DNA of 44,125 nucleotides, from positions 1-44,125 of the IMG/VR virus record IMGVR_UViG_3300008255_000198; one strand, written 5' to 3'. The position numbers and the translations under genes are program-made. This document shows, piece after piece, positions 4,935 to 42,988 of this stretch. Below the pieces are notes generated by a model. The model was not told the DNA's origin. It ran no database searches and saw only the letters and a program-made list of their open reading frames with translations. The stretch's first letter is position 1. Every line of letters begins with the position of its first letter. This DNA comes from a virus. Taxonomy: Duplodnaviria > Caudoviricetes.

Positions 4935-4959
4935 ACCGTGTACAATTATTGTACACGGT
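4935..4959. promoter_or_regulatory. Dispersed palindrome copy 1 (ACCGTGTACAATTATTGTACACGGT)
   Basis: Perfect 12+1+12 inverted repeat, intergenic. Confidence 0.9.
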
Positions 4960-4962
4960 ATT

Positions 4963-5487
4963 TTAGGCTAAACCATGTAGAATAATTGTATCATATTGTG
5001 TTTCAACTGTTTGGCCATCAATCGTAATTCGTACGGTGGCATAGCAATTTTTACACCACGCAGAGAAGGTGTCGATAACTACCTCCTTAAGCTCCGGCGT
5101 ATAATCCAGGGACAAACACGCCCGTGGAAATTTTTCATCATGCTGCTGGAAAAAGCCACCGGTGAACCCTTTGTCTCGGTAGTGATCGAGGGTGAACTGC
5201 GCACGCCATTTGAAAATGTCATTCTGTGGCTGGAATAACACGTCATGGAAGTGGACCAGTCGTTGCAAAACGGCATAGGTTTCCATGCTTTTTTGGGCCC
5301 ATCCAATATACTCACACGAACCACGCCCAAAGACCTTACTTTTATCTTGGGTTACAATATCCCAGGCCACCCGATTAACGTCGGCCCAGGCGATAACGTC
5401 TGCAACCTCCGGATCGTCGGTATAGGTATAGGGTCTAATCTCAGAATAGTAGGTAGTTTTGGTTATTTGTTTGGTTTCGCTGCGCAT
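4963..5487 (-). CDS. Hypothetical protein
   Basis: 174-aa ORF with AGGAG SD. Confidence 0.8.
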   Translation of the reverse strand: MRSETKQITKTTYYSEIRPYTYTDDPEVADVIAWADVNRVAWDIVTQDKSKVFGRGSCEYIGWAQKSMETYAVLQRLVHFHDVLFQPQNDIFKWRAQFTLDHYRDKGFTGGFFQQHDEKFPRACLSLDYTPELKEVVIDTFSAWCKNCYATVRITIDGQTVETQYDTIILHGLA

Positions 5488-5723
5488 TGGTGTTCTCCTG
5501 TTGTTTTAAGTATTTCCGCCATTATTGGCGGTTTTGGCGGTAACGTGGGAGCCGGGCCTTTCGGAAAATCGTAGTCTACCGGCAGACCCTTAATCGCAGC
5601 ATAGAAGGTGCCTCCGGTCATGTCATTCACAATCCGAATAACCTCAGATACTTGTGCTACCGGCAGGCTCTTTTTCTTACCTTCACGCATTGTTACTTCG
5701 CGTACGAACTGGCGAATTTCCAT
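5463..5723 (-). CDS. Small hypothetical protein, possibly DNA-binding
   Basis: 86 aa, GAGGGG SD, basic helical N-terminus. Confidence 0.7.
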   Translation of the reverse strand: MEIRQFVREVTMREGKKKSLPVAQVSEVIRIVNDMTGGTFYAAIKGLPVDYDFPKGPAPTLPPKPPIMAEILKTTGEHQCAAKPNK

Positions 5724-5974
5724 GTCAACCCCCTCATTCTGGCAATAGCCTGCCGTAATCGAATTTTGGATGCTAAACCGGTTTTGGGGTCAATGTAACT
5801 CTGCTCGTGGTCGCATGCTTCAAGAAACCTGTATGTATACTCCATCGCGGCCAGCGATTCTAACGCGATAGGATTCGCGTGTTCCCGGCATCGGCCTAGA
5901 CATACCGCATCGCGCGTGCATTGCCTGTAACTGACCCCATCACCCCAAGGCTCGGAAAACGTGCATTGCATCAT
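5693..5974 (-). CDS. Cys-containing hypothetical protein (start MMQCTF)
   Basis: AAGGAG upstream of ATG 5974; the upstream part of the 208-aa ORF is a shadow of the repeat region. Confidence 0.65.
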   Translation of the reverse strand: MMQCTFSEPWGDGVSYRQCTRDAVCLGRCREHANPIALESLAAMEYTYRFLEACDHEQSYIDPKTGLASKIRLRQAIARMRGLTWKFASSYAK

Positions 5975-6347
5975 GATCGCTCCTTCTAACAGGAACTTCA
6001 TGTGGTTTTGTATCCGGGTACAGACCTGTCCTGGACGTGGACCCTGACCTGCACCTAGACCAGGTCCTGGACTTAAACCAGGACGAGGATCTATATCCAG
6101 ACCTAGACCAGGACGTAGACCCAGACCAGGACGTGGACCAGGACATAGACCAGGACTTAGACTTAGACTTAGACGTCGACCAAGATGTAGATCTGTACCA
6201 AGACCTGGATATGGGTCCAGACCCGGATGTAGATCTACCCCAAGGCATAGACTTGTACCAGGATCTGGAGCTGGACCCAAACCTGCATCCAGACCTGGAA
6301 TAATGCCACAATATCCCAAACCGGCTATGAAGTATTGAGATATTCAT
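5940..6347 (-). CDS. Basic Ser/Arg/Trp/Gly low-complexity protein (SRSW/SWS repeats)
   Basis: ATG 6347 overlaps the upstream TGA (ATGA) with GAGGG SD; repeats SWSTSWSGSTSWSRSG. Confidence 0.7.
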   Translation of the reverse strand: MNISILHSRFGILWHYSRSGCRFGSSSRSWYKSMPWGRSTSGSGPISRSWYRSTSWSTSKSKSKSWSMSWSTSWSGSTSWSRSGYRSSSWFKSRTWSRCRSGSTSRTGLYPDTKPHEVPVRRSDHDAMHVFRALG

Positions 6348-6664
6348 TTCTGGTCCCTCGGTAGGGCATGTCTCCATTCTGTTGTATCCACGAGTGCTCC
6401 ACGACCAATGATCACTAGCCCATCAACGGGTTCGACCTCGTTCAGGGATCCAGTTATCAGCGCATCGTGGAACCTGCCGGTGTCGGCGATCCATGCCGCA
6501 TCCTCGATCACGATTTCGTGTTCTCCGACCGAAACGACGCGCCCCGTCCAATAGTTCGTCACGAGACGAAACAGGTACGTACCCCCGATCTTAAATGGTT
6601 GCGAAATTGATGGCTGGACATTGTGAAGCATCGCTTCTAATTCACACGCCTTATCGATGTTCAT
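6344..6664 (-). CDS. Small beta-rich protein (possible Sm/SH3-like barrel), same architecture as 7179-7496
   Basis: IGGTYLFRLVTNYWTGRVV..IEDAAWI resembles IGKYCIVRTYSAGVFAGVV..VTDARRL; AGGAG SD favours ATG 6664. Confidence 0.8.
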   Translation of the reverse strand: MNIDKACELEAMLHNVQPSISQPFKIGGTYLFRLVTNYWTGRVVSVGEHEIVIEDAAWIADTGRFHDALITGSLNEVEPVDGLVIIGRGALVDTTEWRHALPRDQK

Positions 6665-6688
6665 TTTGATCACTCCTGTTATTTTTAT

Positions 6689-6784
6689 GGGACGGCCTCG
6701 TAGACACGTTCGAGGCCGTCCCGCGATCTCGGCCCGAGGAGATTGGCTAACCTCGGGCCGCTCATTCCCGGCGACAGGCCGAGA
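6689..6784. other. Intergenic GC-rich hairpin cluster
   Basis: Stems 6689-6700/6711-6722 and 6731-6739/6751-6759, plus alternative pairing 6727-6734/6777-6784. Confidence 0.65.
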
Positions 6785-6795
6785 AAACTGATTAT

Positions 6796-7194
6796 TTAAC
6801 CGTAACCATAGCCATCGTCATGGTCGTCATAATACCCGTTACCATTAGCATAGTCTTTGCCTGAATCTGATCCATCGCCATAATCATCGCCATAGCCATC
6901 ATTATAGTTTCTGCCGGAACCATTGCCATCTCCGTCACCGTAACCAGAATCTGAGCTATTACCTGAACCTGATCCCGAGCCTGATCCATCACCGTAACTA
7001 TAGACATCGCCTGAGCCAGTATAATTATCGCCGGAACCGTCACCGGAGGCACCGGAGTCACTGTAGTCATAGTTGTTGCCGAAACCGTCACCGGAACCAT
7101 TACCATAACCATAACCAGAGGCATCACTATCGTCGTCATCGCCGTAGTTGTAGCCGGAACCATCACCGTAATTATTACTTACGTTGCACGCCAT
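6796..7194 (-). CDS. Acidic Gly/Asp/Tyr/Ser low-complexity protein (GDGSG/GYG repeats)
   Basis: Strong GGAGGT SD about 6 nt before the ATG, which overlaps the upstream gene end. Confidence 0.8.
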   Translation of the reverse strand: MACNVSNNYGDGSGYNYGDDDDSDASGYGYGNGSGDGFGNNYDYSDSGASGDGSGDNYTGSGDVYSYGDGSGSGSGSGNSSDSGYGDGDGNGSGRNYNDGYGDDYGDGSDSGKDYANGNGYYDDHDDGYGYG

Positions 7195-7496
7195 TCGGGC
7201 ACCTCCTCTATACTGGTCTTAGCGTCTAATGTACAGGGGATAATTTCTATGACGTTGGTTAGACACACCATCGGAACCACACACGGGAATTTGCATTCGT
7301 TAGGATATTTTACTCCGCGCTGGGATAGTTCACTTAGTGTGGCTGCGCCTTTCCAATACCATAGCCGCCGTGCATCAGTGACACGACATTCCGATCTGTT
7401 GAGGAACTGCACGACTCCGGCAAATACGCCAGCCGAATACGTGCGGACTATGCAATATTTTCCAATTACAGAATCCACGTCATTAGGAAGTTCCAT
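7179..7496 (-). CDS. DUF6948-like small protein
   Basis: IVRTYSAGVFAG and RRLWYWKGAATLSELS pattern recognised from phage proteins; AAGGAG SD. Confidence 0.8.
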   Translation of the reverse strand: MELPNDVDSVIGKYCIVRTYSAGVFAGVVQFLNRSECRVTDARRLWYWKGAATLSELSQRGVKYPNECKFPCVVPMVCLTNVIEIIPCTLDAKTSIEEVPEWRAT

Positions 7497-7553
7497 TTCC
7501 GTCTCCTTTACTTGGTCATTAAACCATTGTTACGACGTTCAACAAGCCGGTCT

Positions 7554-7775
7554 TCACACGAATTTCTCCCAATTCCGGATCGCCAGTACGCGCCGGTGTT
7601 GTTTGTCTGCGTCATCGCCCGGTATCACAGCATCCGGCGTCACGTATTCCACATGCTTAGGCGTCGTGTCCTGTGGCCGCAATAACGCATCGAGCAACCC
7701 AACCAACAGGCACGCGACGATGCAGCCCAACGAGACTGCAACGATTAACACGAATAATCCGATTTCAGTTATCAT
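7554..7775 (-). CDS. Small membrane protein
   Basis: GGAGG SD, ATGA overlap, N-terminal hydrophobic helix. Confidence 0.7.
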   Translation of the reverse strand: MITEIGLFVLIVAVSLGCIVACLLVGLLDALLRPQDTTPKHVEYVTPDAVIPGDDADKQHRRVLAIRNWEKFV

Positions 7776-8566
7776 TCTACGGCCTCCTGAAATGTTAGGT
7801 AAAAATGGATCCCATGGGTACATTCTGTCCGGATATTATCATCCCACGAATCGGCATAAACGTGTTTGCCGATCCTATACTCAATTTTGTTGTCACGATA
7901 CATCCTATTATAGAAACGTACTTCCGGACTAGGTGAGTGATCTATGTTCCATGCACTATTGACCAGCACATAATCCGCCCGGCATTTCCGGCCAATCAGC
8001 GACGACGTGCGTTTGGCATCGGACGGAATCAATAATTCGATGATCTGTTTTTCGCAATTGTAGCAACTTTGCACCTGCTTAAATCCAAAAAAACATCCCA
8101 CCTCCGGCACGATCTGAAAATTAGGTAATATCGCACCCTCAAGATCAGCGGCGACTATGTAGAGGTAAGCATTCTGGAGGTAAGTACCTTGAAGGTTAGC
8201 GTTATGGAGAGTAGCATCCTGAAGGTTAACCTTCCGAAGATCCGCACCCTGGAGATTCGCACCATAGAGGTCCGCACTATAAAGGTCCGCGCCCCGAAGG
8301 TTAGCATATCGGAGGTCAGCGCCATAGAGGTTGGCACCCCGGAGCGAAGCTCCTTGGAGGTTAGCACTCCGAAGATCAGCATTATAGAGGTTAGCACCCT
8401 GAAGGTCCGCACCTTGAAGGTTTGCACCTCGAAGATCAGCCTTCCAGAGGTCAGCATCTTGAAGGAGAGCATCTTGGAGTGAGACTAAATTTGCCTCACA
8501 TATCTTACGAATACTACCACCAGTACCAATTATGGTCCCATCAACATCACACCGTTTTAGTTCCAT
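7772..8566 (-). CDS. Pentapeptide-repeat protein with C-terminal DUF5758-like domain
   Basis: A(D/N)Lxx repeats; C-terminal RKCRA...ECTHGIHFYLT. Confidence 0.88.
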   Translation of the reverse strand: MELKRCDVDGTIIGTGGSIRKICEANLVSLQDALLQDADLWKADLRGANLQGADLQGANLYNADLRSANLQGASLRGANLYGADLRYANLRGADLYSADLYGANLQGADLRKVNLQDATLHNANLQGTYLQNAYLYIVAADLEGAILPNFQIVPEVGCFFGFKQVQSCYNCEKQIIELLIPSDAKRTSSLIGRKCRADYVLVNSAWNIDHSPSPEVRFYNRMYRDNKIEYRIGKHVYADSWDDNIRTECTHGIHFYLTFQEAVE

Positions 8567-8582
8567 ATCACGCTACTCCTAT

Positions 8583-8867
8583 TTAATTAAAATGTGGCCT
8601 AAAAATATGCCAAACAGACTCTCCATCCATAACTGAAGTTAGGTAGTCTTGTGGTAGCACCTCCCCAAAATCTGTGGCTCTAGCAGGATCTCCTGTGCCT
8701 ATAATAATAAACCTCACAGTACATAAAAATTCCTCAGTATTCACATAAGCCCAAATGCAAAGCTTATGGTTTGGATCAAACCCAATATGTAGTATCTTGG
8801 CAGGTTTTTTCATTTCCACATCTTGAATTTTAATTATACTTAGTGGATATTTGTATATAGTTCGCAT
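8583..8867 (-). CDS. Conserved phage hypothetical protein (DUF7352-like)
   Basis: MRTIYKYPL...IWAYV...IIGTG...VWHIF pattern. Confidence 0.75.
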   Translation of the reverse strand: MRTIYKYPLSIIKIQDVEMKKPAKILHIGFDPNHKLCIWAYVNTEEFLCTVRFIIIGTGDPARATDFGEVLPQDYLTSVMDGESVWHIFRPHFN

Positions 8868-9124
8868 TAGTTATCCTTATAATATGGCAGGTTATCTACC
8901 TCAATTTGCGTTATTACAACGTAAACTTTTTCCACACCTATACTAATAAACTTAAGGAATTCATCCCATAAGTAGTAGTGACCACCTACATACCATTTAT
9001 CACCTATCTTAATCGCAGCGTAACTATAAGGAGCAGCACCAACCCTAAAAGTTTTGGTGAAAGTTAATATATCACCATTCTTATAGACATCAGTTGGTTT
9101 GTTAGGCATGGTTATTTTCACCAT
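8867..9124 (-). CDS. Hypothetical protein
   Basis: 85-aa ORF coupled to both neighbours. Confidence 0.7.
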   Translation of the reverse strand: MVKITMPNKPTDVYKNGDILTFTKTFRVGAAPYSYAAIKIGDKWYVGGHYYLWDEFLKFISIGVEKVYVVITQIEVDNLPYYKDN

Positions 9125-9938
9125 TTTCCAGTTTAAACTCCAGTCCTGCTTTCTTCATGAGTGTGGATATATCCGGCTCCTCAAGTAGCAGGAATTTGCC
9201 GGCACCGATTCTAGTCCGGGCAGAATATTGTCCCTCTGTTCCTGTTTGTAGTTTATATTGGGTACTAGGTGTTCCATCCTGATGGCGGGCGCCAGGAATT
9301 GCCTTCGCTATGTACACCTCATCAAATAGTAAGGGCACCTTGGTCTTAGACCTACCTACAATCATTAGCCCAATGTAGGTCTTGCCAGAATCCTCATCCT
9401 GTCTATAGTCTAGGTGGCCAGTTACTATTACATTGCAAGGTAGGTTAGTCCACTCTCGGCATAAGTTGCTTATTAGACCTTGTAGTACAAGATAATCTTG
9501 TAATTGTGGATTAGTACCTAACCGGCCACCTTTATCTAATATATAATTCATAGCGGTGTCGGAAAGAGAAGTCATGCTATCTACAAAGTAGGTGCCCATA
9601 TGGCTAAAATAGCCCCCGCTCTTCAATTGGTCGAATCTAGCAGCATACCTCTTATATTCAATCTTACCTTTCTTATCCGCACCATTAAATTCCTCAACCA
9701 ATATCTGACCATTATCAATATAAGGTTTAAGAAAGGCTACTCGGGATCCGCCAGGATCAAAGCTATGCATGGTTACAGGAAAGGGGCAAGTTCTAGCCAA
9801 AGTTGTTTTGCCAGTACCAAAATCACCAATTACTAAAGCATTAAGCTTTTGGCGGCCTTGACCTTCTGAGTAATTCTTACGGATTTCAGCTATGGTAGCC
9901 TCAATATTTAGTTTAGGTTTAGTTGTTGGTGTTAGCAT
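9102..9938 (-). CDS. AAA_24/Sak4-like ATPase (recombination)
   Basis: Walker A GDFGTGKT, Walker B FVDS, IVTGH, FDEV. Confidence 0.85.
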   Translation of the reverse strand: MLTPTTKPKLNIEATIAEIRKNYSEGQGRQKLNALVIGDFGTGKTTLARTCPFPVTMHSFDPGGSRVAFLKPYIDNGQILVEEFNGADKKGKIEYKRYAARFDQLKSGGYFSHMGTYFVDSMTSLSDTAMNYILDKGGRLGTNPQLQDYLVLQGLISNLCREWTNLPCNVIVTGHLDYRQDEDSGKTYIGLMIVGRSKTKVPLLFDEVYIAKAIPGARHQDGTPSTQYKLQTGTEGQYSARTRIGAGKFLLLEEPDISTLMKKAGLEFKLENGENNHA

Positions 9939-9949
9939 AAATAACGCTC

Positions 9950-10936
9950 CTAATTATCGGTTTTATCAACTTCACCAATTCTTACAATTTTCTTGGCAGT
10001 TTTCTTATACTCTGCCATCGGATCCCAGTACTCTAACCGAAAGCCAACTTGTGGCTCCTGACTTGCAATGTGAAGAGGGTTATGCTTGGCTACACAAAAG
10101 TCATGGTAGGGGCACACCCCATACCTAATGCAGGACTCAGTGTTCATTGGAAAAGCATCTAATATAGGGTTATCCTCATCGGATGAGAGTAGGCGTTTAT
10201 ACTCCTCATCAATCATGTCGGCGTAGTGATTTACCATATTTAACCACATCTGCATATCTAGGGGCCCTTTTTTCACAGGAACCCGCATGAATTCGATTCC
10301 CTTTTTTCGGAAGAATGCACCATTCACCCTAGCCCCATAAACCTGATTAGGGTCCTGTAGACACATTAGGGCGTGGATATAGGTACTAACCTGAACGGAA
10401 AGTGTCCACTCTTCGGCCCATGTGGCGGCTAATCTACTAGATGTTTTATGCTCCAGCACAAATAGTTTACCTTGTTTGTCTTGGCAGAGTGCATCTATCT
10501 TGAAGTGGATACGGCGTCCATCTGCTATTGGCACAGTGCCAGCAATTTCTGTGGCTATCACTTTAAACCGGTCCGTTTCGTACCGCTGGGTATACATAGC
10601 GAGGGCTTCAAGAGCATAGCTAGGGTTTTTCGGCTCCATCAATGCATCTTGGTCTTTGGTGAAATATTGGCGATAATAGGAAGTAAATAAGTCTAAGGCT
10701 GTTGGTATGGCTGCATTATCGTATCGGCCAGTTTTCTGAAACTCCAACAACATATGCTCCATGGCTATATGCCACGCAGCACCAAATACTAGGTCAATGG
10801 ATTCTCCTTCGGGGCGCCAGCCAGCTACGTAGGCCCAAAAGTATCGACGGGGACAAGACATGAAGGTCTTTAGTTTTGTGGAGTCTAAGATATTCCAAGT
10901 TGCGTGGGGTTGTAGCGGCTGCATAGCTAGTCCCAT
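9950..10936 (-). CDS. PD-(D/E)XK RecB/Cas4-like exonuclease
   Basis: CPRRY, FGAAWH, KIDAL..EHKT, QVSTY, C-terminal C..YGVCPYHDFC. Confidence 0.88.
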   Translation of the reverse strand: MGLAMQPLQPHATWNILDSTKLKTFMSCPRRYFWAYVAGWRPEGESIDLVFGAAWHIAMEHMLLEFQKTGRYDNAAIPTALDLFTSYYRQYFTKDQDALMEPKNPSYALEALAMYTQRYETDRFKVIATEIAGTVPIADGRRIHFKIDALCQDKQGKLFVLEHKTSSRLAATWAEEWTLSVQVSTYIHALMCLQDPNQVYGARVNGAFFRKKGIEFMRVPVKKGPLDMQMWLNMVNHYADMIDEEYKRLLSSDEDNPILDAFPMNTESCIRYGVCPYHDFCVAKHNPLHIASQEPQVGFRLEYWDPMAEYKKTAKKIVRIGEVDKTDN

Positions 10937-11226
10937 CCTTTACAACCGCAATAATATCGGTCTTCTTCCTGATTTATGCGGGATTGAAAATAGGCTAAGC
11001 TCAATTTACTGGTTACTTTTTTGCCACAATATACACATTTAGCGGACCTTCCAGTTAAGCTGGGAGGGTTTTCATCTATTTGTCTGGCCCCAGGATAGAT
11101 ACCAATACAGGCTACACAGACAGGGCTACCTTGGCTGTCCTTCCCAGATGCGGTATGGCCACATTTCATTAATGGCATTAACGGAGCCTCCGTCCCTATC
11201 AAAGTCTCATTTATACCAAGTTCCAT
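10927..11226 (-). CDS. Cys-rich putative zinc-binding protein
   Basis: KCGH, CVAC, CVYC, YYCGC; GGAGG SDs before in-frame ATGs at 11226 and 11178. Confidence 0.75.
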   Translation of the reverse strand: MELGINETLIGTEAPLMPLMKCGHTASGKDSQGSPVCVACIGIYPGARQIDENPPSLTGRSAKCVYCGKKVTSKLSLAYFQSRINQEEDRYYCGCKGWD

Positions 11227-11278
11227 TATTAGTTCCTCCAGTAAAGTTGAAAACTTTCTCCACCCTAGCCCTTTAAAA

Positions 11279-11303
11279 ACCGTGTACAATAATTATACAC
11301 GGT
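11279..11303. promoter_or_regulatory. Dispersed palindrome copy 2
   Basis: ACCGTGTACAATAATTATACACGGT. Confidence 0.9.
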
Positions 11304-11308
11304 CTTGT

Positions 11309-11347
11309 GGGGAGGAGTTAACTAAGTAGCCACGTTAACTCCTCCCC
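11309..11347 (-). terminator. Hairpin after the 11367-11753 gene
   Basis: GGGGAGGAGTTAAC/GTTAACTCCTCCCC 14-bp stem, no clear U-tract. Confidence 0.5.
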
Positions 11348-11366
11348 TTAGCTAAGCTGGAGGATC

Positions 11367-11753
11367 TTAGCTAGATGCATCGGCGCCATATGCTTGATTA
11401 GCCGCACGAGCACGGAGTGTTTCGAGAAATTCTGCCTTCTCCTCGTCGTTCATGGAGATGAACTTTTCGATCATGGCCGCTTTCGTGTCTACTGGTCCAC
11501 GAGGAGTCCTAACACCAGGCTTCCACTTAAGGCTGCGGAGTTTTTCGGTGATCTGGTCCTGCGATAGACCTTTCTTTTGCAAAGACCGTAAGGCGGCCTG
11601 GAGAGAAATTATGGCCTTCTGCCGGTAATTGCTAAATACGACAGCCTCACCGAAGAGGCTACGAGCGTGGTCCAAATTATCACCAAAGTCAAACTCGTAG
11701 GTAACCTCGGCTTTCGTTTCAGGATCAGTTGCGGTTATTGCTTGAAGAGCCAT
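11367..11753 (-). CDS. Hypothetical protein
   Basis: 128 aa, AAGGAG SD. Confidence 0.85.
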   Translation of the reverse strand: MALQAITATDPETKAEVTYEFDFGDNLDHARSLFGEAVVFSNYRQKAIISLQAALRSLQKKGLSQDQITEKLRSLKWKPGVRTPRGPVDTKAAMIEKFISMNDEEKAEFLETLRARAANQAYGADASS

Positions 11754-11822
11754 TTCTTTGTCTCCTTTGCCACTTAAATTTGAGTGGCGGTTCTTAACGT
11801 TCTTTTCCTCAATAACAAAGGT

Positions 11823-12224
11823 TTACTCATCCTCTTCTTCGTCCTCGTCTTCCTCTTCCTCTTCCTCTTCTTCCTCCTCTTCTTCAATCTTTTCCTCAAT
11901 CTCATCCTCTTCCTTTTCTTCTTCCTCAATTTTATGTACTATTTTTTCAGTATCGGCCAACTCTATATCGGCGTCTTCCTTAGGAGTTAGCTCTAAGATG
12001 GGTACTACTTTCGCTGGCGTTTCCGTGTCCGCTGGTTCATCAATTACCGGATAGCGATATCCACCATTTAGCTCCTGTTTTACATACACAGTTACTAGGT
12101 TAGGCCCAAGGTATCGGATGGCCTCTACTATGTAGATAGTTGTTATTTCTTCATCCATATCATAGACGTGGAGAAGTAAACGGAATTCTGATAGTCGTAC
12201 CTCACCCTCAATTTGGCCACTCAT
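11823..12224 (-). CDS. Protein with a very acidic poly-Glu/Asp tail
   Basis: GGAGG SD before ATG 12224; ends EEEEEEEEEEEEDEDEEEDE. Confidence 0.75.
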   Translation of the reverse strand: MSGQIEGEVRLSEFRLLLHVYDMDEEITTIYIVEAIRYLGPNLVTVYVKQELNGGYRYPVIDEPADTETPAKVVPILELTPKEDADIELADTEKIVHKIEEEEKEEDEIEEKIEEEEEEEEEEEEDEDEEEDE

Positions 12225-12246
12225 GTCATGATCCTCCAGTTTGTTT

Positions 12247-12271
12247 GGCGTGTACAATTATTATACACGCC
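12247..12271. promoter_or_regulatory. Dispersed palindrome copy 3
   Basis: GGCGTGTACAATTATTATACACGCC. Confidence 0.9.
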
Positions 12272-12286
12272 ATTCTGAATAGTTGG

Positions 12287-12625
12287 TTAAGCTACTTTCC
12301 TACTCTCTTCTATCCAAGCTACTTTTTCTTCTATCCAAGCCACACTTATGCCATTAGCCGTTTCATTGATGGCGGCTTCTGCAAAGGTTATAAACTCGGA
12401 CCATGGATCCGGTCCATAAAACAGCTTAGTTAATGCGGGTATATAAATAACGGAGAAGTGGTGGTCCTCACTTAGTATGTACCAATATCGAAGCCGGCAA
12501 CTAGGAAAGAATAGCCAATATTTATAACTGGAGTTGTTGTACTTGGCTCGTTCTATGCCTCGCCTTATAACAGCTTCTACTAGGTTTGATGATCCGTCCT
12601 TGCTAAGGGGTTCTTTATTTAACAT
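12287..12625 (-). CDS. Hypothetical protein
   Basis: 112-aa ORF overlapping the upstream stop. Confidence 0.6.
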   Translation of the reverse strand: MLNKEPLSKDGSSNLVEAVIRRGIERAKYNNSSYKYWLFFPSCRLRYWYILSEDHHFSVIYIPALTKLFYGPDPWSEFITFAEAAINETANGISVAWIEEKVAWIEESRKVA

Positions 12626-13004
12626 TGGCAGAATCCGCAGTTATATTACTATGTTCTTGTAAAGCCTTTGTTAACATATCGCTGTTAACCACCTTATTCA
12701 TAGCCGCTAAGGATTCAGTCAGTGTCTCTTCAGCTAATTCCCTGGCTACCTTCGACTTTGGTGACATAATTTGTTTGGCGGAGATACCTAGCCTTGTTAG
12801 TTGTTCTATTCCTTCCTCAACGGTCTCGGGACGGTTAGCACCACACTTTTGAAATAGCCCGGAAGCTATTTCCAGGTGTAGCTTTAACGCACTGCCAATA
12901 CTAAGTTCTACAATTCCTGCCGCTTTGGCTGCCATTATTAGCACAACTAAGTCTCGAATATCAAGGCGAAGCTGGCAGTTCATCGTTGCTTTTTCTACTT
13001 TCAT
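12615..13004 (-). CDS. Hypothetical protein, probably on a leaderless mRNA
   Basis: ATG lies 5 nt after TATAAT; no SD. Confidence 0.75.
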   Translation of the reverse strand: MKVEKATMNCQLRLDIRDLVVLIMAAKAAGIVELSIGSALKLHLEIASGLFQKCGANRPETVEEGIEQLTRLGISAKQIMSPKSKVARELAEETLTESLAAMNKVVNSDMLTKALQEHSNITADSANVK

Positions 13005-13009
13005 AATGT

Positions 13010-13039
13010 ATTATATCACATACACTCGCTGGTTGTCAA
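13010..13039 (-). promoter_or_regulatory. Sigma70-type promoter (leftward)
   Basis: TTGACA-18 nt-TATAAT with extended -10 TG. Confidence 0.85.
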
Positions 13040-13094
13040 GCTATTTTTTAGCCTCACTAGCAAAACTGATATTATCAGGGCTATTTTAGATTAA

Positions 13095-13110
13095 ACCGTG
13101 TACAATTATT
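13095..13110. promoter_or_regulatory. Dispersed palindrome, truncated copy
   Basis: ACCGTGTACAATTATT; the right arm is replaced by the end of the 13106 gene. Confidence 0.75.
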
Positions 13111-13669
13111 CGTAGTCCGCGCATTCTGCACTTTCCACCTCATTAAGATGGGCGAGAAATTGATCGAGTGATCCGCTCCAGCTACCACGCACTATTCGGA
13201 CGCCGATTTCTAGGTCCCGATGGATAGTGATAAACTCACCGCTATTAAGTGTCCAACCAGAAAAATCCTGCCCGGACTTTATTAAGCCGTAGCCTGTGAT
13301 ATGGGTTTTTCCGTCAACTATCGCCGTGTCTGTGATATGTGCTTGGCCATCAATTATCGTATGTCCACAAATTAGCGCTTGGCTGTCAATCCGCGCTTGG
13401 CCAGCGATTATTGCATGGCCAGCGACCACCGCATATCCTGTGATACGCGCCTGGCCGGTTATTAGCGCCTGGCCACTGATCACAGCTAGGCCACCTATAC
13501 GTGCCTGACCACTGATAAGCGCCTGCTCTTCTACTAACGCGGAGCCACTGACCCGCGCCTGGCCTAGCACCCGTGCCTCATCATCAATTAACGCTTGGTC
13601 ATTGACCAGCGCCTGGCCGCCCACGCGCGCATGGCCCTCAATCCGCGCCTGGCCTAATACGTTCCTCAT
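13106..13669 (-). CDS. Hexapeptide-repeat (left-handed beta-helix-like) protein
   Basis: GQARV/GQALI six-residue repeats. Confidence 0.85.
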   Translation of the reverse strand: MRNVLGQARIEGHARVGGQALVNDQALIDDEARVLGQARVSGSALVEEQALISGQARIGGLAVISGQALITGQARITGYAVVAGHAIIAGQARIDSQALICGHTIIDGQAHITDTAIVDGKTHITGYGLIKSGQDFSGWTLNSGEFITIHRDLEIGVRIVRGSWSGSLDQFLAHLNEVESAECADYE

Positions 13670-13739
13670 CTCCCTACCCTCCCTTAAGTCACCTGAGCCG
13701 CTTCCTCTAAGTTCTCCTCTAAGTTCTCCTCTACCTGAC

Positions 13740-13961
13740 TCATTTCATATCTCTCCAGTCATCACCCTCACCCTTCGCCCGAATCCACGTCATCCACGCC
13801 GCTTGAAGTTGGACACGCGCCACCTCCGCCGCTTGCGCGGCGACTTCGGACTCTTGCTCTGCGGCTATGAGCTTTTCAAACGCCACTTGAGTGACCTCAT
13901 CAAGCTCCACCTGCCGGTTCCGCCGCAATCCCGGAATCCTTGCCAATTCTATGTAGCTCAT
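13740..13961 (-). CDS. Ala-rich helical hypothetical protein
   Basis: AGGAGG SD. Confidence 0.75.
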   Translation of the reverse strand: MSYIELARIPGLRRNRQVELDEVTQVAFEKLIAAEQESEVAAQAAEVARVQLQAAWMTWIRAKGEGDDWRDMK

Positions 13962-13993
13962 TTTTATTCCCTCCTATTTATGTTGTCCGGCCG

Positions 13994-14200
13994 CTATTTT
14001 ACTAACGGTTCCGACATTTCCCATCCATAGCTGGTAGTTATTAGGTAGGACCACCTTAATTTAGCCTCCATCCCTAACAAATCAGGACGGTTAGTTACCT
14101 TTATATACTTCACTCTGATAAAGGGATCTTCGGTGTTATCCGGATTTCGTTCTACACCTAATACTTCAAGAGTGGTAGTTTTATTTTGTAGTAGTAACAT
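13994..14200 (-). CDS. Hypothetical protein
   Basis: AGGAG SD before ATG 14200. Confidence 0.65.
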   Translation of the reverse strand: MLLLQNKTTTLEVLGVERNPDNTEDPFIRVKYIKVTNRPDLLGMEAKLRWSYLITTSYGWEMSEPLVK

Positions 14201-14531
14201 GGTTATTTCTCCTAGTAGTTTCGCCACTTCTTATAAGCTCAACAAGCTTATTATCCTCATATAAAGCTACCTCGTCTAGCTCTATTTGGACGAGAGTATC
14301 CCCCTCTACTATAACATGAAGGTGGATAGTAAGCTTATCCGCTTTTATATCCACATAGGCACCTACTCCCTCATGAAATTCAAATTGCTGGGCAACTATA
14401 GTGCTGCCCATAATTGAGAGATGAATACCTCGACAGGCAAATTCTGCTGCGAGGACCCAGCCCGTCATTGACGGACCGGTGACGGCGAAATGTACCATCG
14501 GTTCGCCCTTGTAAATAATTAGCCGTTTCAT
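14181..14531 (-). CDS. Hypothetical protein
   Basis: AAGGAG SD, 116 aa. Confidence 0.7.
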   Translation of the reverse strand: MKRLIIYKGEPMVHFAVTGPSMTGWVLAAEFACRGIHLSIMGSTIVAQQFEFHEGVGAYVDIKADKLTIHLHVIVEGDTLVQIELDEVALYEDNKLVELIRSGETTRRNNHVTTTK

Positions 14532-14578
14532 TAGTTAGCTCCTTCACATCCTAGCAAGCTAGTCCTGTATTCTCCTGG

Positions 14579-14923
14579 TTAGTCTTTCACCCAATGTGGC
14601 GCAATAATCTGCGCCAGGTTTCGCGCATAACGCGCCTCGCGTGAGGCCATCCACGCCTGACGCCGCCGAAGGTTCGCCACCCGCGCCGCTTCTGTGGCTT
14701 TGTCTGCGGCTCGCGCCGCCGCTTGTGCCGCATCAGCGGCCTCAATCGCCGCATGGTCGGCGGCCTGAAAGTCTTCCCAGGCCGTCTCAACATCCAAGCC
14801 GTCACGCCAAGCACGCGCCAATTCGGCGCGGATGGTTCGGAATGGAGTATTCCCGAGCTCTACCCACGCTCTGGCAACCATTTCGCCAACCTCTCGATCC
14901 GTTACATTCGTCGTGCGTTTCAT
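14579..14923 (-). CDS. Ala/Arg-rich helical hypothetical protein
   Basis: GGAGGT SD before ATG 14923. Confidence 0.75.
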   Translation of the reverse strand: MKRTTNVTDREVGEMVARAWVELGNTPFRTIRAELARAWRDGLDVETAWEDFQAADHAAIEAADAAQAAARAADKATEAARVANLRRRQAWMASREARYARNLAQIIAPHWVKD

Positions 14924-15010
14924 CTGTCCTACCTCCATTGTTGTCCGGCCCCAGGCCGGAACGTTTTTTATTTTTTACCAATTTTGTTGATTCTGGCGAT
15001 TCTGGCGATT

Positions 15011-15196
15011 CTATAACTGTTTGCCACCTTCCGCCTGCAATCTATTAGTTATGGATTCTATAAACTCCCTTGTTGCTATTTGTATGAGTTTATTCTGTTC
15101 TTTTGGACTAAGGGAGTCATATAGCTCACCTACTGTCAACTCATGCCGGAGATAGCCACTCCCCTTACATTTTGGGCAAAGTTCCTTCTTATACAT
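15011..15196 (-). CDS. Small protein with a CxxCxGxG zinc-knuckle-like motif
   Basis: CPKCKGSG; AAGGAG SD. Confidence 0.7.
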   Translation of the reverse strand: MYKKELCPKCKGSGYLRHELTVGELYDSLSPKEQNKLIQIATREFIESITNRLQAEGGKQL

Positions 15197-15304
15197 AATT
15201 TTAACTCCTTCTACCGGCAAAGCCGGTCTTTTGACTAGGCTGCTAATCTTGTAAGATTATCCGACTAGCACCTAGCTAATTAATATTTCACCTTATGTTA
15301 TCTT

Positions 15305-15329
15305 GGCGTGTACAATTATTATACACGCC
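15305..15329. promoter_or_regulatory. Dispersed palindrome copy 4
   Basis: GGCGTGTACAATTATTATACACGCC. Confidence 0.9.
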
Positions 15330-15545
15330 TGCTAACTTCGTTAGCGGCTTTATTAGCACCGTCGTTAGCACCTTTATTTAGCGCCTTTATTAGCTGCTTC
15401 GTTAACAGCCAACTTCGTTAGCGGCTTCGTTATCGGTGTCGGTGTTTCTGCTATTTTAATTCGGCTAATTAGTATCCTGCTAAGCTAGGGCTAACGAAGT
15501 TAGCGGCGAAGTTAGCGCACGCCGGCGAACGAAGTTCGCTAAGTT

Positions 15546-15822
15546 TGCAAGTGAAAGTTGAAAGTGAATGTATATGTTGTAACCCGCCCGTACTCTTCGA
15601 TAAACGAGAAAAGCTAGGTTAGCGCCAGTCTAAAGAAGGCACTAAGGAAGCTAGGTTAGTTGAACTACTCTTCTTTGATCATTTTTTTTTTTAATACATA
15701 TATTTCCTTTTCTAGCCTACTAACCTACTAACCTACTAACCTGTTAAGGTGTGTGAAGCGCTCTTTTTAAAGAGCACCCCCGGGTTACAACATTCGCATA
15801 CATTTTCAACTTACAACTTACA
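15546..15822. repeat. About 42-bp imperfect inverted repeat enclosing a T11 tract and CCTACTAA repeats; candidate origin region
   Basis: 15546-15586 pairs with 15781-15822 (perfect core ATGTTGTAACCCG/CGGGTTACAACAT); non-coding. Confidence 0.7.
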
Positions 15823-15969
15823 CTATTAACCTACTAACCTAATCCCGCTATTAGCTTAATAACCTAGTTAACCTACTAACCTAATCCCGCTATTAGACTA
15901 GTTAGCCTACTAATCTAACGTTAGGTTAGCGTAATAGCCAAGCTAATAGCCACGCTATGCTAGATCGTC

Positions 15970-15994
15970 GGCGTGTACAATAATTATACACGCC
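15970..15994. promoter_or_regulatory. Dispersed palindrome copy 5
   Basis: GGCGTGTACAATAATTATACACGCC. Confidence 0.9.
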
Positions 15995-16028
15995 TATTAA
16001 ACTATTTCTCCGCCGTCGTTACTAATAC

Positions 16029-16613
16029 TGCTAATACTGTGATAGGGCCACAGCAGTTTAGGACGCATCGCGCTAAATCTATCCGTTTATCTGGAATTTT
16101 CTATCTCGTTCGCCTTCTAGGAAGGCGATCGTATCATCTAATTCTTTCAGGCTTTTGCAAGCCCGGGCTGTCCTACTGGCCGCTTCTGCGGCCGTCATGG
16201 GCGGTCTTATTCCCTGCCGCCGCATACCGATAGATGCCACTTTCAGACCCGTCTCTCTCAGGCTACTAATAGCCTGCGTTGCAACAGCATCTCCACGGTA
16301 TGTGCCGTCCGCGTCTATGCTCATGGCCTTTATCAAGGCCTGAGTTTTTCGGACAATTATGAACTCAACTGCGTGCCGGACAACTTGTCCAACCGTTGCA
16401 CCCTCAAATAATATCGGGATGCCCCCGATATTATGTTTGTGGGTTCCCTGAATAGTCACGGTTCTATCATCGTCCGTCTTGACGATAACTGTCCCGTCAA
16501 AGGTCACATTGTCAAGTTGGTCTTTACTCAGTGTGATAGGGTTATCCATATCTATTCTCCAGCTACCTTGTTGTTTAGCTTTGTTTAGCTGTGACCCTAT
16601 CACAGTACTAGCA
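16029..16613 (-). repeat. 26-bp inverted repeat (16029-16054 / 16588-16613) bracketing the first early gene
   Basis: 24/26 identity; both mismatches are G-U pairs in minus-strand RNA. Confidence 0.85.
16079..16549 (-). CDS. First early-arm hypothetical protein (start MDNPIT)
   Basis: GGAG SD before ATG 16549. Confidence 0.8.
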   Translation of the reverse strand: MDNPITLSKDQLDNVTFDGTVIVKTDDDRTVTIQGTHKHNIGGIPILFEGATVGQVVRHAVEFIIVRKTQALIKAMSIDADGTYRGDAVATQAISSLRETGLKVASIGMRRQGIRPPMTAAEAASRTARACKSLKELDDTIAFLEGERDRKFQING

Positions 16614-16622
16614 GGATTCAAC

Positions 16623-16659
16623 TTTCAAAGAACTTCCGCTCACTAGGCCTTCCAGTGAG
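16623..16659 (-). promoter_or_regulatory. boxB-like hairpin plus boxA-like antitermination element
   Basis: Minus strand: hairpin CTCACTGG-AAGGC-CTAGTGAG followed by AGTTCTTTGAAA. Confidence 0.6.
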
Positions 16660-16734
16660 TGCTTTTGGGTTTTATTTAATTGTTCTTTCGACCCCTTTGC
16701 TGTTTGCTTCTGTTGTCAAGCTTGCCCTATAGAC

Positions 16735-16751
16735 AGCAAGAGCCATGCCAA
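16735..16751 (-). promoter_or_regulatory. Sigma54 (-24/-12) promoter
   Basis: TTGGCATGGCTCTTGCT matches TGGCA-N6-TTGC with GG-N10-GC spacing. Confidence 0.8.
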
Positions 16752-16817
16752 GTTCGTAAGTCGTTGCGGTGTAAGGACTTACGAAGAAGCACTGAAAGAG
16801 TATTCAGTGCTATTTCT

Positions 16818-16853
16818 GGGAAAACTTTGCCCAGTACAGGGAAAACTTTGCCC
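16818..16853. promoter_or_regulatory. Tandem enhancer-like sites GGGAAAACTTTGCCC x2
   Basis: Identical quasi-palindromic 15-mers 21 bp apart, about 100-120 bp upstream of the predicted sigma54 start. Confidence 0.7.
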
Positions 16854-17178
16854 TACTAGTAACTACTCTTTATTAGTACGATAGTATGTTAGAGTACTAG
16901 TATGCCTTAGCATAGCGAAGGCCAATACGTTGTCATGGCACTAGCCGCCGTCTTAATAGCACTCCTTAGTAGTCAAGGCCAATAATAGCTATGTTAGTGT
17001 GCTAGCCTAACACTTATCTAGTGCTTCACTCTACCCTTCTGTGCTACCCAGCAACTTAGCATGGCCGGGCGGCCCCGGGGATCGCCGTCTTCGTATTTAA
17101 TAATGGAGACAGGATTCTATTTCCTATATCCATATCAATTCCTCATCTTTTCTCTCTTCGACCCTTCGGGCCGAAGCA

Positions 17179-17248
17179 GGGCTTGGATAATTATTCGGGC
17201 TTGGATAATTATTCGGTCCGAGTAATTATCCGGGCCGGATAATTATTC
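17179..17248. repeat. Array of four 17-18-bp units with a GGATAATTAYTCGG core
   Basis: GGGCTTGGATAATTATTC x2, one inverted unit, then GGGCCGGATAATTATTC. Confidence 0.85.
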
Positions 17249-17273
17249 GGCGTGTATAATTATTTTACACGGT
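17249..17273. promoter_or_regulatory. Dispersed palindrome copy 6
   Basis: GGCGTGTATAATTATTTTACACGGT. Confidence 0.88.
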
Positions 17274-17396: not shown

Positions 17397-17401
17397 ATAT
17401 A

Positions 17402-18193
17402 GTGAAAGGGATTATTAGCATGAACGGCAACTCTAGCTCCAGGATAACGCCCACGACGACGACGACGACTGGAACGGCTTTGCCGACGATGGTGACAGTA
17501 AGTCCCATTACTGGAATTGATTACCTAGCTGCTGCCCGTGCTCCGCGTGATAATAGGCGGCGTCCAGTAGGTAAGCGTCGCTATGAGATTAAGGATATCC
17601 AGCACCGCCATCGTGAGATTATTCGGATGAGCCTAGCTGGAATGAAGAATGTGGCCATTGCAGCCACTTTAGGTATTACTCCACAAAATGTTTGTGATGC
17701 ACTTCGTAGTCAACCTATCGTAGAGGAGATGGCAAAACTACAAGAGAAGGCAGATGAAAGGGCCATTGACTTCCATAAAGAGATCAAGAGGTTAGTGCCG
17801 AAGGCACTGGAGACACATGAGGAGATATTAACGGAACGGCGTATTACTGATAAGGGAAACGAAGTATACCGATATGATGCTCCAGTCCGGCAACGTAGCG
17901 CAGACCGTATTTTAGACAGCGCGGGGCTAGGTCGGATTCAACGAATTCAAGGTGAGGTTGTTCATGGTTTCCTAAGTCATGATGATATTGAGGTTATTAA
18001 AAAGCGTGCTATTAGCCGTGTGATTGATATTACGCCGTCTCCGCCGTCTTCCGAGACGGGGAAGGCGGAGCCTTTGCCAGCTCCAGCGGAGTATTCCGCC
18101 GAGACGGAGCCTGAGACGGCGGAGCCCTCGCCAACTCCGGCGGATTCTGAGACGGCGAAGTGTTACGGAACGGCGGTAGCGAACCGTGTATAA
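17402..18193 (+). CDS. terS: Probable terminase small subunit (HTH)
   Basis: HTH-like RHREIIRMSLAGMKNVAIAATLGITPQNV; SADRILDSAG; first gene of the structural arm. Confidence 0.7.
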   Translation: MKGIISMNGNSSSRITPTTTTTTGTALPTMVTVSPITGIDYLAAARAPRDNRRRPVGKRRYEIKDIQHRHREIIRMSLAGMKNVAIAATLGITPQNVCDALRSQPIVEEMAKLQEKADERAIDFHKEIKRLVPKALETHEEILTERRITDKGNEVYRYDAPVRQRSADRILDSAGLGRIQRIQGEVVHGFLSHDDIEVIKKRAISRVIDITPSPPSSETGKAEPLPAPAEYSAETEPETAEPSPTPADSETAKCYGTAVANRV

Positions 18194-18207
18194 TTATTGT
18201 ACACGCC
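18183..18207. promoter_or_regulatory. Dispersed palindrome copy 7 (contains the terS stop)
   Basis: ACCGTGTATAATTATTGTACACGCC. Confidence 0.9.
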
Positions 18208-23282: not shown

Positions 23283-23283
23283 T

Positions 23284-23610
23284 ATGCTAGAGCGTAAACT
23301 ATACACTGAACCGGAGTCTAAGTCAATCCTTAGTGCTTTGTCTGTTATCCAGGCTGAGGTCGAAAGGGCCACTCTAGTTGTTGCCCCCCCTTCAACAAAT
23401 ACACAACTTAGCCCCACCCAACAAATGCTAAGTGGTGTAACGGCTGACTTTCGACCTCAGCCTTATCAAGAAGATGAGGTGTTGGCTCTGATTGTTAGGA
23501 TGAAGAAATATGCGGACCGGGAATCTAGGATGCAAAAGTTAAGTGAGCGTACTAACAGTGTTATTGCTAGGTTGACCCAACTTGTTAGCATAATGTTTGG
23601 AGGCGTGTAA
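23284..23610 (+). CDS. Hypothetical protein
   Basis: ATG immediately after the upstream stop. Confidence 0.65.
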   Translation: MLERKLYTEPESKSILSALSVIQAEVERATLVVAPPSTNTQLSPTQQMLSGVTADFRPQPYQEDEVLALIVRMKKYADRESRMQKLSERTNSVIARLTQLVSIMFGGV

Positions 23611-23626
23611 AATAATTGTACACGGT
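23602..23626. promoter_or_regulatory. Dispersed palindrome copy 8 (contains a stop codon; just before terL)
   Basis: GGCGTGTAAAATAATTGTACACGGT. Confidence 0.9.
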
Positions 23627-31392: not shown

Positions 31393-31417
31393 GGCGTGTA
31401 AAATAATTGTACACGGT
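31393..31417. promoter_or_regulatory. Dispersed palindrome copy 9
   Basis: GGCGTGTAAAATAATTGTACACGGT, followed by a GC hairpin at 31421-31442. Confidence 0.9.
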
Positions 31418-34616: not shown

Positions 34617-35438
34617 ATGAGAGGTGGAGGATCGTCTGGGAAGGTTGGGTATCCGGCTTATATGGAAACTAAGCATACTGCTTGGTTAGATAGTATTGCT
34701 ACACTTATAACGGCAGATACAGCAGGTGCTGGACCTTATAATACTGCTTTCTCTTATGATCCAGATTATGATTTATCCAATTTTCAGGACAAGATCGATT
34801 CTTTTATTGATACGATAGATGTTGTTGAACCAATACTGGATTATGAAACTTTCCTTGCCGCCGCAGCCTCGGCTGTAGATGCTAGTTTAGAGCCTGATAC
34901 CTACATAGATGAAGCAACAGTGGCCTATGAGAGTGCCCAGCTACCCCCTTATTTCCGCTCTATTAACCGTTTTACTGGGCCTATGAGTGATCTAAATGCG
35001 GTCCATACCTCCGCTTTTGTTATTGGTATGGCTATTATGGAGCAGAGTTTCCAAAATAATGTGGATGGCTTTGCGGCTCAACTTAAGGTGCAACGGAGCC
35101 AAATTAGGGCTACAGCTATCCTTGATGGTGTTCGCTCTATTATGCAATTGTTCAATTTTGAGTTACAGGGTGACTTAAATATAGCACAGTTACAAGGTGA
35201 TTTTGCCTATAAGGCTATTGGTTTTAAAACAAACCAATATGAACAAGACTTAGCCATCGACGTACATGATATAATGTGGGATTACGATGTATTTATGCGA
35301 GGTGGTGAAATGCTTGGCTCAATTAGCGGTGCGGCTGCTGGTCCGCTTAAAACACCTAGAGGCCAACAGATGCTTAGTGGCGGCCTTAGTGGCATAGCCA
35401 GCCTTGCTACGACACTTGGTACTTTGGGAGTGCTATAG
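34617..35438 (+). CDS. Internal virion/ejection protein
   Basis: MRGGGSSG start, Gly-rich hydrophobic C-terminus. Confidence 0.7.
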   Translation: MRGGGSSGKVGYPAYMETKHTAWLDSIATLITADTAGAGPYNTAFSYDPDYDLSNFQDKIDSFIDTIDVVEPILDYETFLAAAASAVDASLEPDTYIDEATVAYESAQLPPYFRSINRFTGPMSDLNAVHTSAFVIGMAIMEQSFQNNVDGFAAQLKVQRSQIRATAILDGVRSIMQLFNFELQGDLNIAQLQGDFAYKAIGFKTNQYEQDLAIDVHDIMWDYDVFMRGGEMLGSISGAAAGPLKTPRGQQMLSGGLSGIASLATTLGTLGVL

Positions 35439-35462
35439 GCGTGTACAATTATTTTACACGGT
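35438..35462. promoter_or_regulatory. Dispersed palindrome copy 10
   Basis: GGCGTGTACAATTATTTTACACGGT, directly at a TAG stop. Confidence 0.9.
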
Positions 35463-42211: not shown

Positions 42212-42212
42212 T

Positions 42213-42962
42213 ATGGTTACTAATAAAAATGAGGAGTTGCGTGGTAGTGGTAATGTACCTAGAGAACCAGGACCTGGGTCTAATTTTGGTCCTAACTTAG
42301 CACAGGCGCTAGCTAACTTTATAGGGGCCAGGACCTCTAATCGTGCTGTTGGAAATAATAAGCAACCAACACAAATTACTGGAACTACAACGGGTACACC
42401 AGCTGTAAGTGGATCTCAGTATTGGGATGGATCTCAGTACCAAGCGAACACACCAGGTATTGGCTCAACAATACCTCAGTGGCATGGACGCCTTAATAGC
42501 ATGGTTCAAGGTAATATTAATAGGGGTGGCTTATCTCCAGAACAAATGATAGGAGTGTTACAACCATTTATTAGTGGTGGCCAACAAAGCCGGGGTGGCA
42601 GTAGCGGAATTAGTGGCTTATTTATGAATGCCCTTGGTAGTCTATTTAGTGGGCTTAGTGGCTCAACAGGAACACCTAATAGAGGTAGCACTGGTTTTGG
42701 CGGTGGTTTTGGCGGTGGTATATATCCACAAACTGTAGACCAGCCAAATGAGACCGGCCTTGGGCCAAGTGGACCCGGAAATATTGGTGGTGGATATAAT
42801 GCCTATACTGGACAGTATGGTTACGGATTGAATTATGGTCCAATACTTGGCGCTATGGTTGCAGGAGAAGGTCCGGTTAATAGTAGAGTCCGTGACTACT
42901 ATCGTGGTCCTAGTCGGGCTCCGTTTGCTCAGACTCATGGAGCACAGGAACGTCAATACTAG
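42213..42962 (+). CDS. Gly/Asn/Gln-rich low-complexity protein (possibly ejected)
   Basis: GAGGT SD before ATG 42213. Confidence 0.75.
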   Translation: MVTNKNEELRGSGNVPREPGPGSNFGPNLAQALANFIGARTSNRAVGNNKQPTQITGTTTGTPAVSGSQYWDGSQYQANTPGIGSTIPQWHGRLNSMVQGNINRGGLSPEQMIGVLQPFISGGQQSRGGSSGISGLFMNALGSLFSGLSGSTGTPNRGSTGFGGGFGGGIYPQTVDQPNETGLGPSGPGNIGGGYNAYTGQYGYGLNYGPILGAMVAGEGPVNSRVRDYYRGPSRAPFAQTHGAQERQY

Positions 42963-42963
42963 A

Positions 42964-42988
42964 ACCGTGTACAATTATTTTACACGGT
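42964..42988. promoter_or_regulatory. Dispersed palindrome copy 11, at the convergence of the two arms
   Basis: ACCGTGTACAATTATTTTACACGGT; contains the minus-strand stop and lies 1 nt from the plus-strand stop. Confidence 0.9.

Follow-up and report, generated by a model that had tools for sequence, protein, structure and literature searches.

The phage genome and its ParB-HTH-methyltransferase gene

The window, by which we mean the whole 44,125-nucleotide stretch of DNA analysed here, is a complete phage record whose terminal overlap of 123 bases gives a circle of 44,002 bases. Phage genes were matched for an SU10-type portal and capsid, a large terminase, DNA polymerase A, a primase, Sak4 and an exonuclease, and a scan of 65 ORFs returned no match to an integrase, repressor, recombinase or ParA. 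The phage is present in aquifer and groundwater sequencing runs, and no match was obtained when bases 1-25000 were searched as nucleotides against GenBank phages. The DNA polymerase A (146-2599) carries an N-terminal uracil-DNA-glycosylase domain, and the early arm encodes a pentapeptide-repeat protein and a hexapeptide-like repeat protein (7772-8566 and 13106-13669).

The minus strand at 2647..3990 encodes a 447-aa ParB-HTH-DNA methyltransferase (MTase) fusion, the putative reader of the DNA sites described below. Its ParB N-terminal nucleotide-binding domain (approximately residues 15-112; 3655..3948, minus strand) scored above the cut-off for PF02195, the helix-turn-helix (HTH; residues 137-164; 3499..3582, minus strand) was found in both the model and Pfam, and the beta-class N6/N4 amino-MTase domain (2665..3315, minus strand) matched PF01555, with fold matches to CcrM, RsrI and MboIIA and with DPPY preceding FxGxG as in that class. 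The closest solved relatives of the fusion protein are Noc, ParB and beta-class MTases. Across 68 sequences, R22, R62, N96 and DPPY were invariant (68/68), as were G59, R61, R62, E95, N96 and R99, which make up ParB Boxes I-III, and both SAM-binding glycines of FxGxG were kept in 68/68. Residue roles in the ParB domain were taken from PMC13229309 and bioRxiv 2021.05.05.442810 and mapped by motif register; R22, R62 and N96 correspond to phosphate-binding residues of M. xanthus ParB as described in PMC13229309. The positions of the hydrolytic Gln and Glu, mapped in the same way, are R20 and G60 in this phage, and among the 68 sequences the first is R in 68/68 while the second is G in 49, E in 18 and H in 1, so that the catalytic Gln and Glu of ParB-family CTP clamps never occurred as a pair in this set. 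In M. xanthus ParB, loss of Q52 or E93 is described as leaving CTP binding in place and extending spreading to 125-175 kb, compared with 33 kb (bioRxiv 2021.05.05.442810), and the nucleotide preference of ParB-type proteins is described as not predictable from sequence (PMC12704722).

Eleven dispersed near-palindromic sites

Eleven 25-base near-palindromes are distributed over both arms of the genome, at exactly the starts listed in the original prediction, and every one matches the pattern proposed there. With a 19-bp core as query and a tolerance of 2 mismatches, 11 matches were obtained, compared with 0.01 expected from 100 shuffles; the count was still 11 at 3 mismatches, and at 4 it was joined by one degenerate copy (4972..4996, 4 mismatches in the core). 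Site 1 (4935..4959), the sole perfect palindrome of the 11, is flanked by ORF 4493-4882 on one side and by the stop of ORF 4963-5487 on the other; site 2 (11279..11303) lies upstream of the exonuclease operon, and site 3 is at 12247..12271. Sites 4 (15305..15329) and 5 (15970..15994) stand on either side of a non-coding stretch, with site 4 at its edge. Site 6 (17249..17273) precedes a TerS-like HTH protein gene (17402..18193, plus strand; the TerS label derives from position and HTH), whose stop is overlapped by site 7 (18183..18207). In the remaining part of the genome, site 8 (23602..23626) stands immediately ahead of the large terminase, overlapping the stop of ORF 23233-23610, site 9 (31393..31417) follows the major capsid gene, site 10 (35438..35462) falls between two virion-region genes, and site 11 (42964..42988) overlaps the primase stop where the two arms converge.

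Several further details of the prediction held up on inspection: the truncated copy at 13095 is a real half-site (13095..13110) comprising a 16-base left half plus the centre, at the stop of ORF 13106-13669; TGTACA is present in 10 of the 11 full copies; mixed outer arm types occur in 5 of 11; and the copies, said to lie less than about 8 kb apart on the circle, leave a largest gap of 7,791 bases. The claim that copies are intergenic or at stop codons was likewise borne out, with 0/11 deep inside an ORF though ORF interior makes up 81% of the genome, so that the equally good copies deep within coding sequences that would have counted against the idea were not seen in this genome. The same placement was found in 17 near-complete genomes of the family, where 22 of 208 sites lay deep in ORFs compared with 158 expected.

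Other repeats occur in the same region. The non-coding stretch between sites 4 and 5 (15331-15955) contains 8-base tandem repeats and a 46-base inverted pair (15552-15597 and 15770-15815) and is a candidate origin. Four or five short direct and inverted repeats with an AATTAT centre (17180-17263) immediately precede site 6 and the TerS-like promoter and are a candidate packaging or origin signal. ORF 16079-16621 is bracketed by a 31-base inverted repeat, 90% complementary (16024-16054 and 16588-16618).

Relatives carry private palindrome families that accompany the gene

Relatives identified through the capsid gene (43-51% identity) also contained dispersed palindromes of the same build and different sequence, about 21-27 bases long with an AT-rich centre and present in 5-25 copies compared with 1-5 in shuffles; the feature is thus family-wide yet phage-specific, each relative having its own version, a point that the original prediction had missed. 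These family scans covered the best 80 of 253-453 relatives. Among 38 whole records examined, 30 carried the ParB-HTH-MTase gene, 4 lacked it, and 4 were fragments without that region. A single de novo rule was passed by 26 of the 30 gene-bearing records, rising to a palindrome family in 29/30 after seeding with relatives' motifs, compared with none above shuffle level in the 4 records that cover the slot and lack the gene (G025, G031, G044 and G045). Since G031 and G045 are 99.9% alike, these four negatives represent three phages, two of them related. In loci chosen through the primase alone (n = 55, after 25 of 80 were dropped as too short), 38 of the 51 gene-bearing loci passed the rule, compared with 0 of the 4 others. 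The motif and the ParB-MTase gene therefore co-occur among relatives, as the original prediction had proposed should be checked. One 25-kb fragment (G036) has the gene and no palindrome family, and in another record (G048) the family is weakly separated from background. Three distant ParB-MTase phages (22-26% identity) contained no palindrome family, which indicates that the site rule is not general to all such fusions.

The family also shows variation in its parts. Even-centred palindromes, whose centre differs in length by one base, in either direction, from the usual odd one, occur in G005, G014, L247, L249, L296 and G046, and an SPAS/SPSS helix start is common to several of them. One genome (G011) mixes two half-site types, and another encodes a second ParB-HTH protein of 254 aa with a different recognition helix and no MTase (G022:C1:36881-37402). 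In the Gordonia phages Love, Ailee, Stultus, McKinley and Sitar, a separate HTH gene adjoins a related MTase gene, and this pair is possibly a split form in cultured phages.

The recognition helix covaries with the motif

For covariation, 120 sequences with the gene were reduced to 85 that passed the motif filters (35 failed them or, as with G036, were set aside), then to 68 at 90% identity (17 redundant), and finally to 63 with odd-centred motifs (5 even-centred). In these 63 proteins, motif distance followed protein distance with a partial rho of 0.45-0.56 over residues 120-140 and 148-168, up to 0.38 in parts of the ParB N-terminal domain, and approximately zero over most of the MTase domain. 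The top-ranked of all 447 positions for half-site bases 4-8 were 139, 139, 149, 150 and 154, all of them in the HTH; bases 1-2 pointed to the loop before the HTH, and bases 3 and 9-11 were without such a signal. At residue level, His149 accompanied G6 in 12/13 proteins compared with 6/50 without His149, and Asp148 accompanied G8 in 6/6 compared with 2/57 without Asp148. The window phage and G016, whose proteins are about 41% identical, share SPMTV-x-N and the TGTA core. Mapped by eye through a G-x-S-R motif, position 149 is in register with ParB R173, a known specificity residue described as among the first residues of the recognition helix (PMC7383237).

In a tree built without the DNA-binding domain, His149 changes 9 times. 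Among tree-independent pairs, the His149 changes gave 3.9 in the same direction, 0 opposite and 2.1 unchanged of 6 (P = 0.125, not significant), and the Asp148 changes gave 2.8, 0 and 0.2 of 3, respectively (P = 0.25, not significant); shared ancestry gives comparable Fisher values at positions 403 and 423 in the MTase domain. A further 22 phages were held out; among them, Asp148 predicted G8 in 2/2 compared with 0/20 without it, while His149 was absent and G6 was present without it in 2. With nearest neighbours chosen by recognition helix, 3.27 of 5 core bases were matched in these held-out phages, compared with 2.68 for neighbours by MTase domain (P = 0.003) and 2.82 for neighbours by the rest of the protein; the comparison of HTH surface residues with the rest of the protein gave P = 0.11. 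Judged by these sequence comparisons, motif differences track the ParB HTH, and not the MTase domain or the TerS helix (rho of -0.05, compared with 0.68 for the ParB helix, in 15 genomes), so the covariation that the original prediction proposed as a check was seen in the 63 proteins, and the helix also predicted motifs in the 22 phages held out.

These results bear on whether another protein, such as TerS, a small early protein, a recombinase or a host regulator, reads the sites. Many small ORFs are without a family match, and one window of the small conserved protein of ORF 11367 reached a rho of 0.54 (15 genomes). Against such a reader, the motif varies with the ParB helix and is absent from phages that lack the ParB-MTase gene, no tracking of the motif was seen for the TerS helix, G025 has retained TerS but not the sites, no recombinase was found among the 65 ORFs, and in IMG/VR the exact core occurred as single copies in 38 other viral contigs and in no contig more than once. 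We therefore regard a different reader as very improbable, and the host-regulator version is not supported. Candidate readers tried and rejected were the TerS-like protein (best-window rho 0.31), ORF 4208 (0.14) and ORF 4493 (0.34). The ParB-HTH-MTase itself very probably binds the sites physically as their reader, as the co-occurrence and helix covariation suggest.

Symmetry, spacing and position of the sites

The near-palindromes stand where genes end and have folding energies of -5 to -14 kcal/mol, and where both halves depart from the consensus 31 of 59 changes still pair, which would suit RNA or single-stranded DNA hairpins acting as terminators or processing sites. Perfect palindromes, however, numbered only 7 of 226 sites compared with 30 expected from shuffling halves within genomes, the count fell below expectation in 18/19 genomes, and a T-rich flank adjoined just 26/226 sites. 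The deficit of perfect palindromes together with the even spread of the sites argues against hairpins, and we consider that reading extremely improbable. The earlier proposal of a protein dimer on double-stranded DNA in place of an RNA hairpin gains support from this deficit, from co-occurrence and from residue-level covariation. The avoidance of symmetry (19 genomes, 226 sites) may reflect selection against hairpins or directional loading.

Spacing was compared with a null of random gene junctions after merging sites less than 400 bases apart. The sites were more evenly spaced than this null in 17/17 genomes (combined P about 1e-15); for the genome of the window alone, P was 0.045 for the largest gap and 0.12 for spacing variation. 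Such even spacing suits whole-genome coverage better than control of single promoters.

The position of the sites relative to promoters and genes leaves room for a second use of the same protein, in which the ParB fusion, bound to the sites, acts chiefly on transcription, as a KorB/BisD-like long-range regulator or an elongation roadblock, and methylation is secondary. A sigma-70 scan of positions 1-19000 returned 41 matches, near the shuffle mean of 33. Two of the 7 full copies in this range overlapped weak sigma-70-like matches running through the sites' TAHAAT, namely those at 11279 (10/12, a weak -10 match on the minus strand) and 15305 (9/12); the statement that most copies are not at promoters needs qualifying for these two. 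Each of the two 12/12 matches is preceded at 56-94 bases by a site or half-site: the half-site at 13095 lies 56 bases upstream of one on the minus strand, and site 6 lies about 94 bases upstream of the one preceding the TerS-like gene. In addition, 147 of 187 sites lie between co-directional genes, the better half is downstream in 87 sites and upstream in 61 (P = 0.04), and BisD, a ParB-like clamp, is described as activating promoters at a distance (PMC12409273). A mainly transcriptional role is nevertheless unlikely in our judgement, since the sites are more evenly spread than gene junctions and also occur at convergent ends such as 42964, the -10-like hexamer is lost in many relatives' motifs, and the sole extra domain of the protein is a fully conserved MTase.

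Comparison with known systems

Mycobacteriophage stoperators occur in many copies at gene boundaries across the phage genome; they are asymmetric 13-mers that follow the direction of transcription and serve as binding sites for an immunity repressor. The sites described here are instead near-palindromes that track the ParB helix, their orientation bias is weak (87 vs 61), and the 65 ORFs gave no match to the repressor or integrase of a temperate phage. The stoperator option of the original prediction accordingly fails on the form of the site and the type of protein, and what survives of it is the possibility, considered above, that the same ParB protein acts as a roadblock or regulator. Its module-exchange option is not supported: no recombinase was found among the 65 ORFs, and in four contig sets there was no rearrangement at the sites beyond repeat artefacts, one joint between two sites and a loose end being explained by the repeat itself (the comparison used contigs, where rare forms may escape notice).

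Noc sites lie scattered along the chromosome. The phage system resembles ParB-parS and Noc-NBS in its ParB N-terminal domain and HTH, its palindromic site and the placement of specificity in the first recognition-helix residues, and differs in the length of the site (21-25 bases, compared with 16 in those systems), in its AT-rich and mostly odd centre, in a motif that changes from phage to phage, in having no ParA, in its C-terminal MTase and in the replaced hydrolysis positions. Of the features that define ParABS, a ParB nucleotide-binding domain with Boxes I-III and a predicted palindrome-recognising HTH were found, whereas a cognate ParA (65 ORFs), a ParA-binding motif (N-terminus) and clustered centromere sites (17 genomes) were not. 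The absence of ParA and the dispersed sites place the phage system outside ParABS, and by analogy we infer that it works like ParB, Noc, KorB and BisD without being a ParABS member. The same observations bear on the idea that the sites are partition or localisation centromeres of a plasmid-like prophage that recruit host ParA or Smc. A ParB-type domain and palindromic sites would fit such a role, which is quite improbable given that no ParA match was found in the 65 ORFs, that the N-terminus is without the LG-R/K-GL ParA-binding motif (as given in PMC12704722), that the sites are dispersed where M. xanthus parS is described as clustered (bioRxiv 2021.05.05.442810), and that 13 matches in bacterial genome bins fell on contigs of at most 48.5 kb, none of them chromosome-sized.

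KorB-OB and BisD-bisS also involve ParB-like clamps that load at sites of their own on a mobile element and serve purposes other than partition; their output is transcription control, whereas the extra domain here is a DNA-modifying enzyme. BisD is described as sliding about 50 kb (PMC12409273), and KorB is cited as a clamp in PMC13229309. The ParB-dependent phage T-dioxygenases, as presented in PMC13229309, likewise couple a phage ParB-fold protein to DNA modification; there the ParB is a separate activator with no DNA-binding domain, whereas here HTH and enzyme share one chain and the sites are identifiable. M.BceSVII (BCE_0392), from a prophage of Bacillus cereus ATCC 10987 and the one characterised ParB-MTase that we came across, is described as similar in its ParB domain fused to an adenine MTase and its phage context. 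The cloned BCE_0392 is described as a promiscuous m6A MTase (PMC3526280) and as weak or inactive in other assays (PMC3459991), and the available text of PMC5512222, PMC3592412 and PMC3459991 reports nicking activity and no DNA loading site. The nearest named relative is Desulfofustis phage LS06-2018-MD01 (OP947158.1; 40.7% identity over 96% of the protein), which has a similar gene order and its own 9-copy palindrome family and differs in the motif core. That phage was metagenome-assembled, with its host assigned through CRISPR spacers and its ParB unmentioned in the available text (bioRxiv 2023.02.06.527410), and the accessible part of the pink-berry methylome paper (PMC9296519) contains nothing on this phage group.

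Proposed function of the sites and the fusion protein

Collectively, the sites are real and family-wide, and most likely the address sites of the phage ParB-MTase. Co-occurrence and covariation give good support to the first option of the original prediction, that the phage's ParB-HTH protein loads at them, and we consider it probable that the 11 palindromes are parS-like docking sites at which the ParB-HTH-MTase loads before sliding and methylating the phage genome. A putative dimer of the protein would dock on the palindrome; a nucleotide-closed clamp would then form and slide along the surrounding phage DNA, two steps suggested by the conserved ParB nucleotide-binding residues; and the sliding MTase would methylate the phage genome broadly, at adenine or cytosine, while largely sparing host DNA. 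The broad methylation and its anti-restriction purpose are suggested by BCE_0392 and by general knowledge of phage orphan MTases. Load-and-spread self-methylation of the phage genome is on balance the likelier course, taken by itself. Against a clamp role, nucleotide-site mutations are described as leaving function intact in the phage ParB that activates T-dioxygenase (PMC13229309).

A static version, in which the protein binds the sites without sliding and local methylation marks time packaging or replication, could draw on the three sites that flank the non-coding region and the TerS-like gene, on the one that precedes the large terminase, on the phage replication or packaging role suggested for BCE_0392 (PMC3459991) and on the departure of both hydrolysis positions from canonical ParB. 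Most sites are far from the non-coding and TerS-like region, however, even genome-wide spacing would not be needed for such marks, and the nucleotide-binding residues are invariant, so we hold this version to be improbable.

Returning to loading followed by sliding, a bolder form of it, which we offer tentatively as somewhat short of probable, is that a hydrolysis-poor ParB clamp with a broad MTase loads only at private palindromes and sweeps the genome, giving protection from restriction while host and competitor DNA stay unmethylated, with a few helix residues serving as a retargetable code. Six-base palindromes are still avoided by gene-bearing phages, with a difference from gene-less phages of P = 0.064 (pooled; 3 negatives), and those with one A/T per half are more avoided in the 3 gene-less phages, a split made post hoc.

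In the available text of a 2025 survey (PMC12704722), phage ParB-N6N4-MTase fusions are described as common, an anti-defence role is put forward as a suggestion and the word "palindrome" is never used; in PMC13229309, the direction of DNA modification to loci by ParB is called unconfirmed. Our literature search, which lay outside most subscription journals and supplements, found no paper describing cognate sites. One clade of ParB-MTase fusions thereby gains a predicted cognate DNA site and with it a direct assay. The family further provides dozens of naturally occurring pairings of protein and site, with rules for individual residues; for work on shifts in HTH specificity, this natural set is larger than that of ParB/Noc. 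The proposed loading at private sites, if true, would explain how a phage uses a broad MTase selectively.
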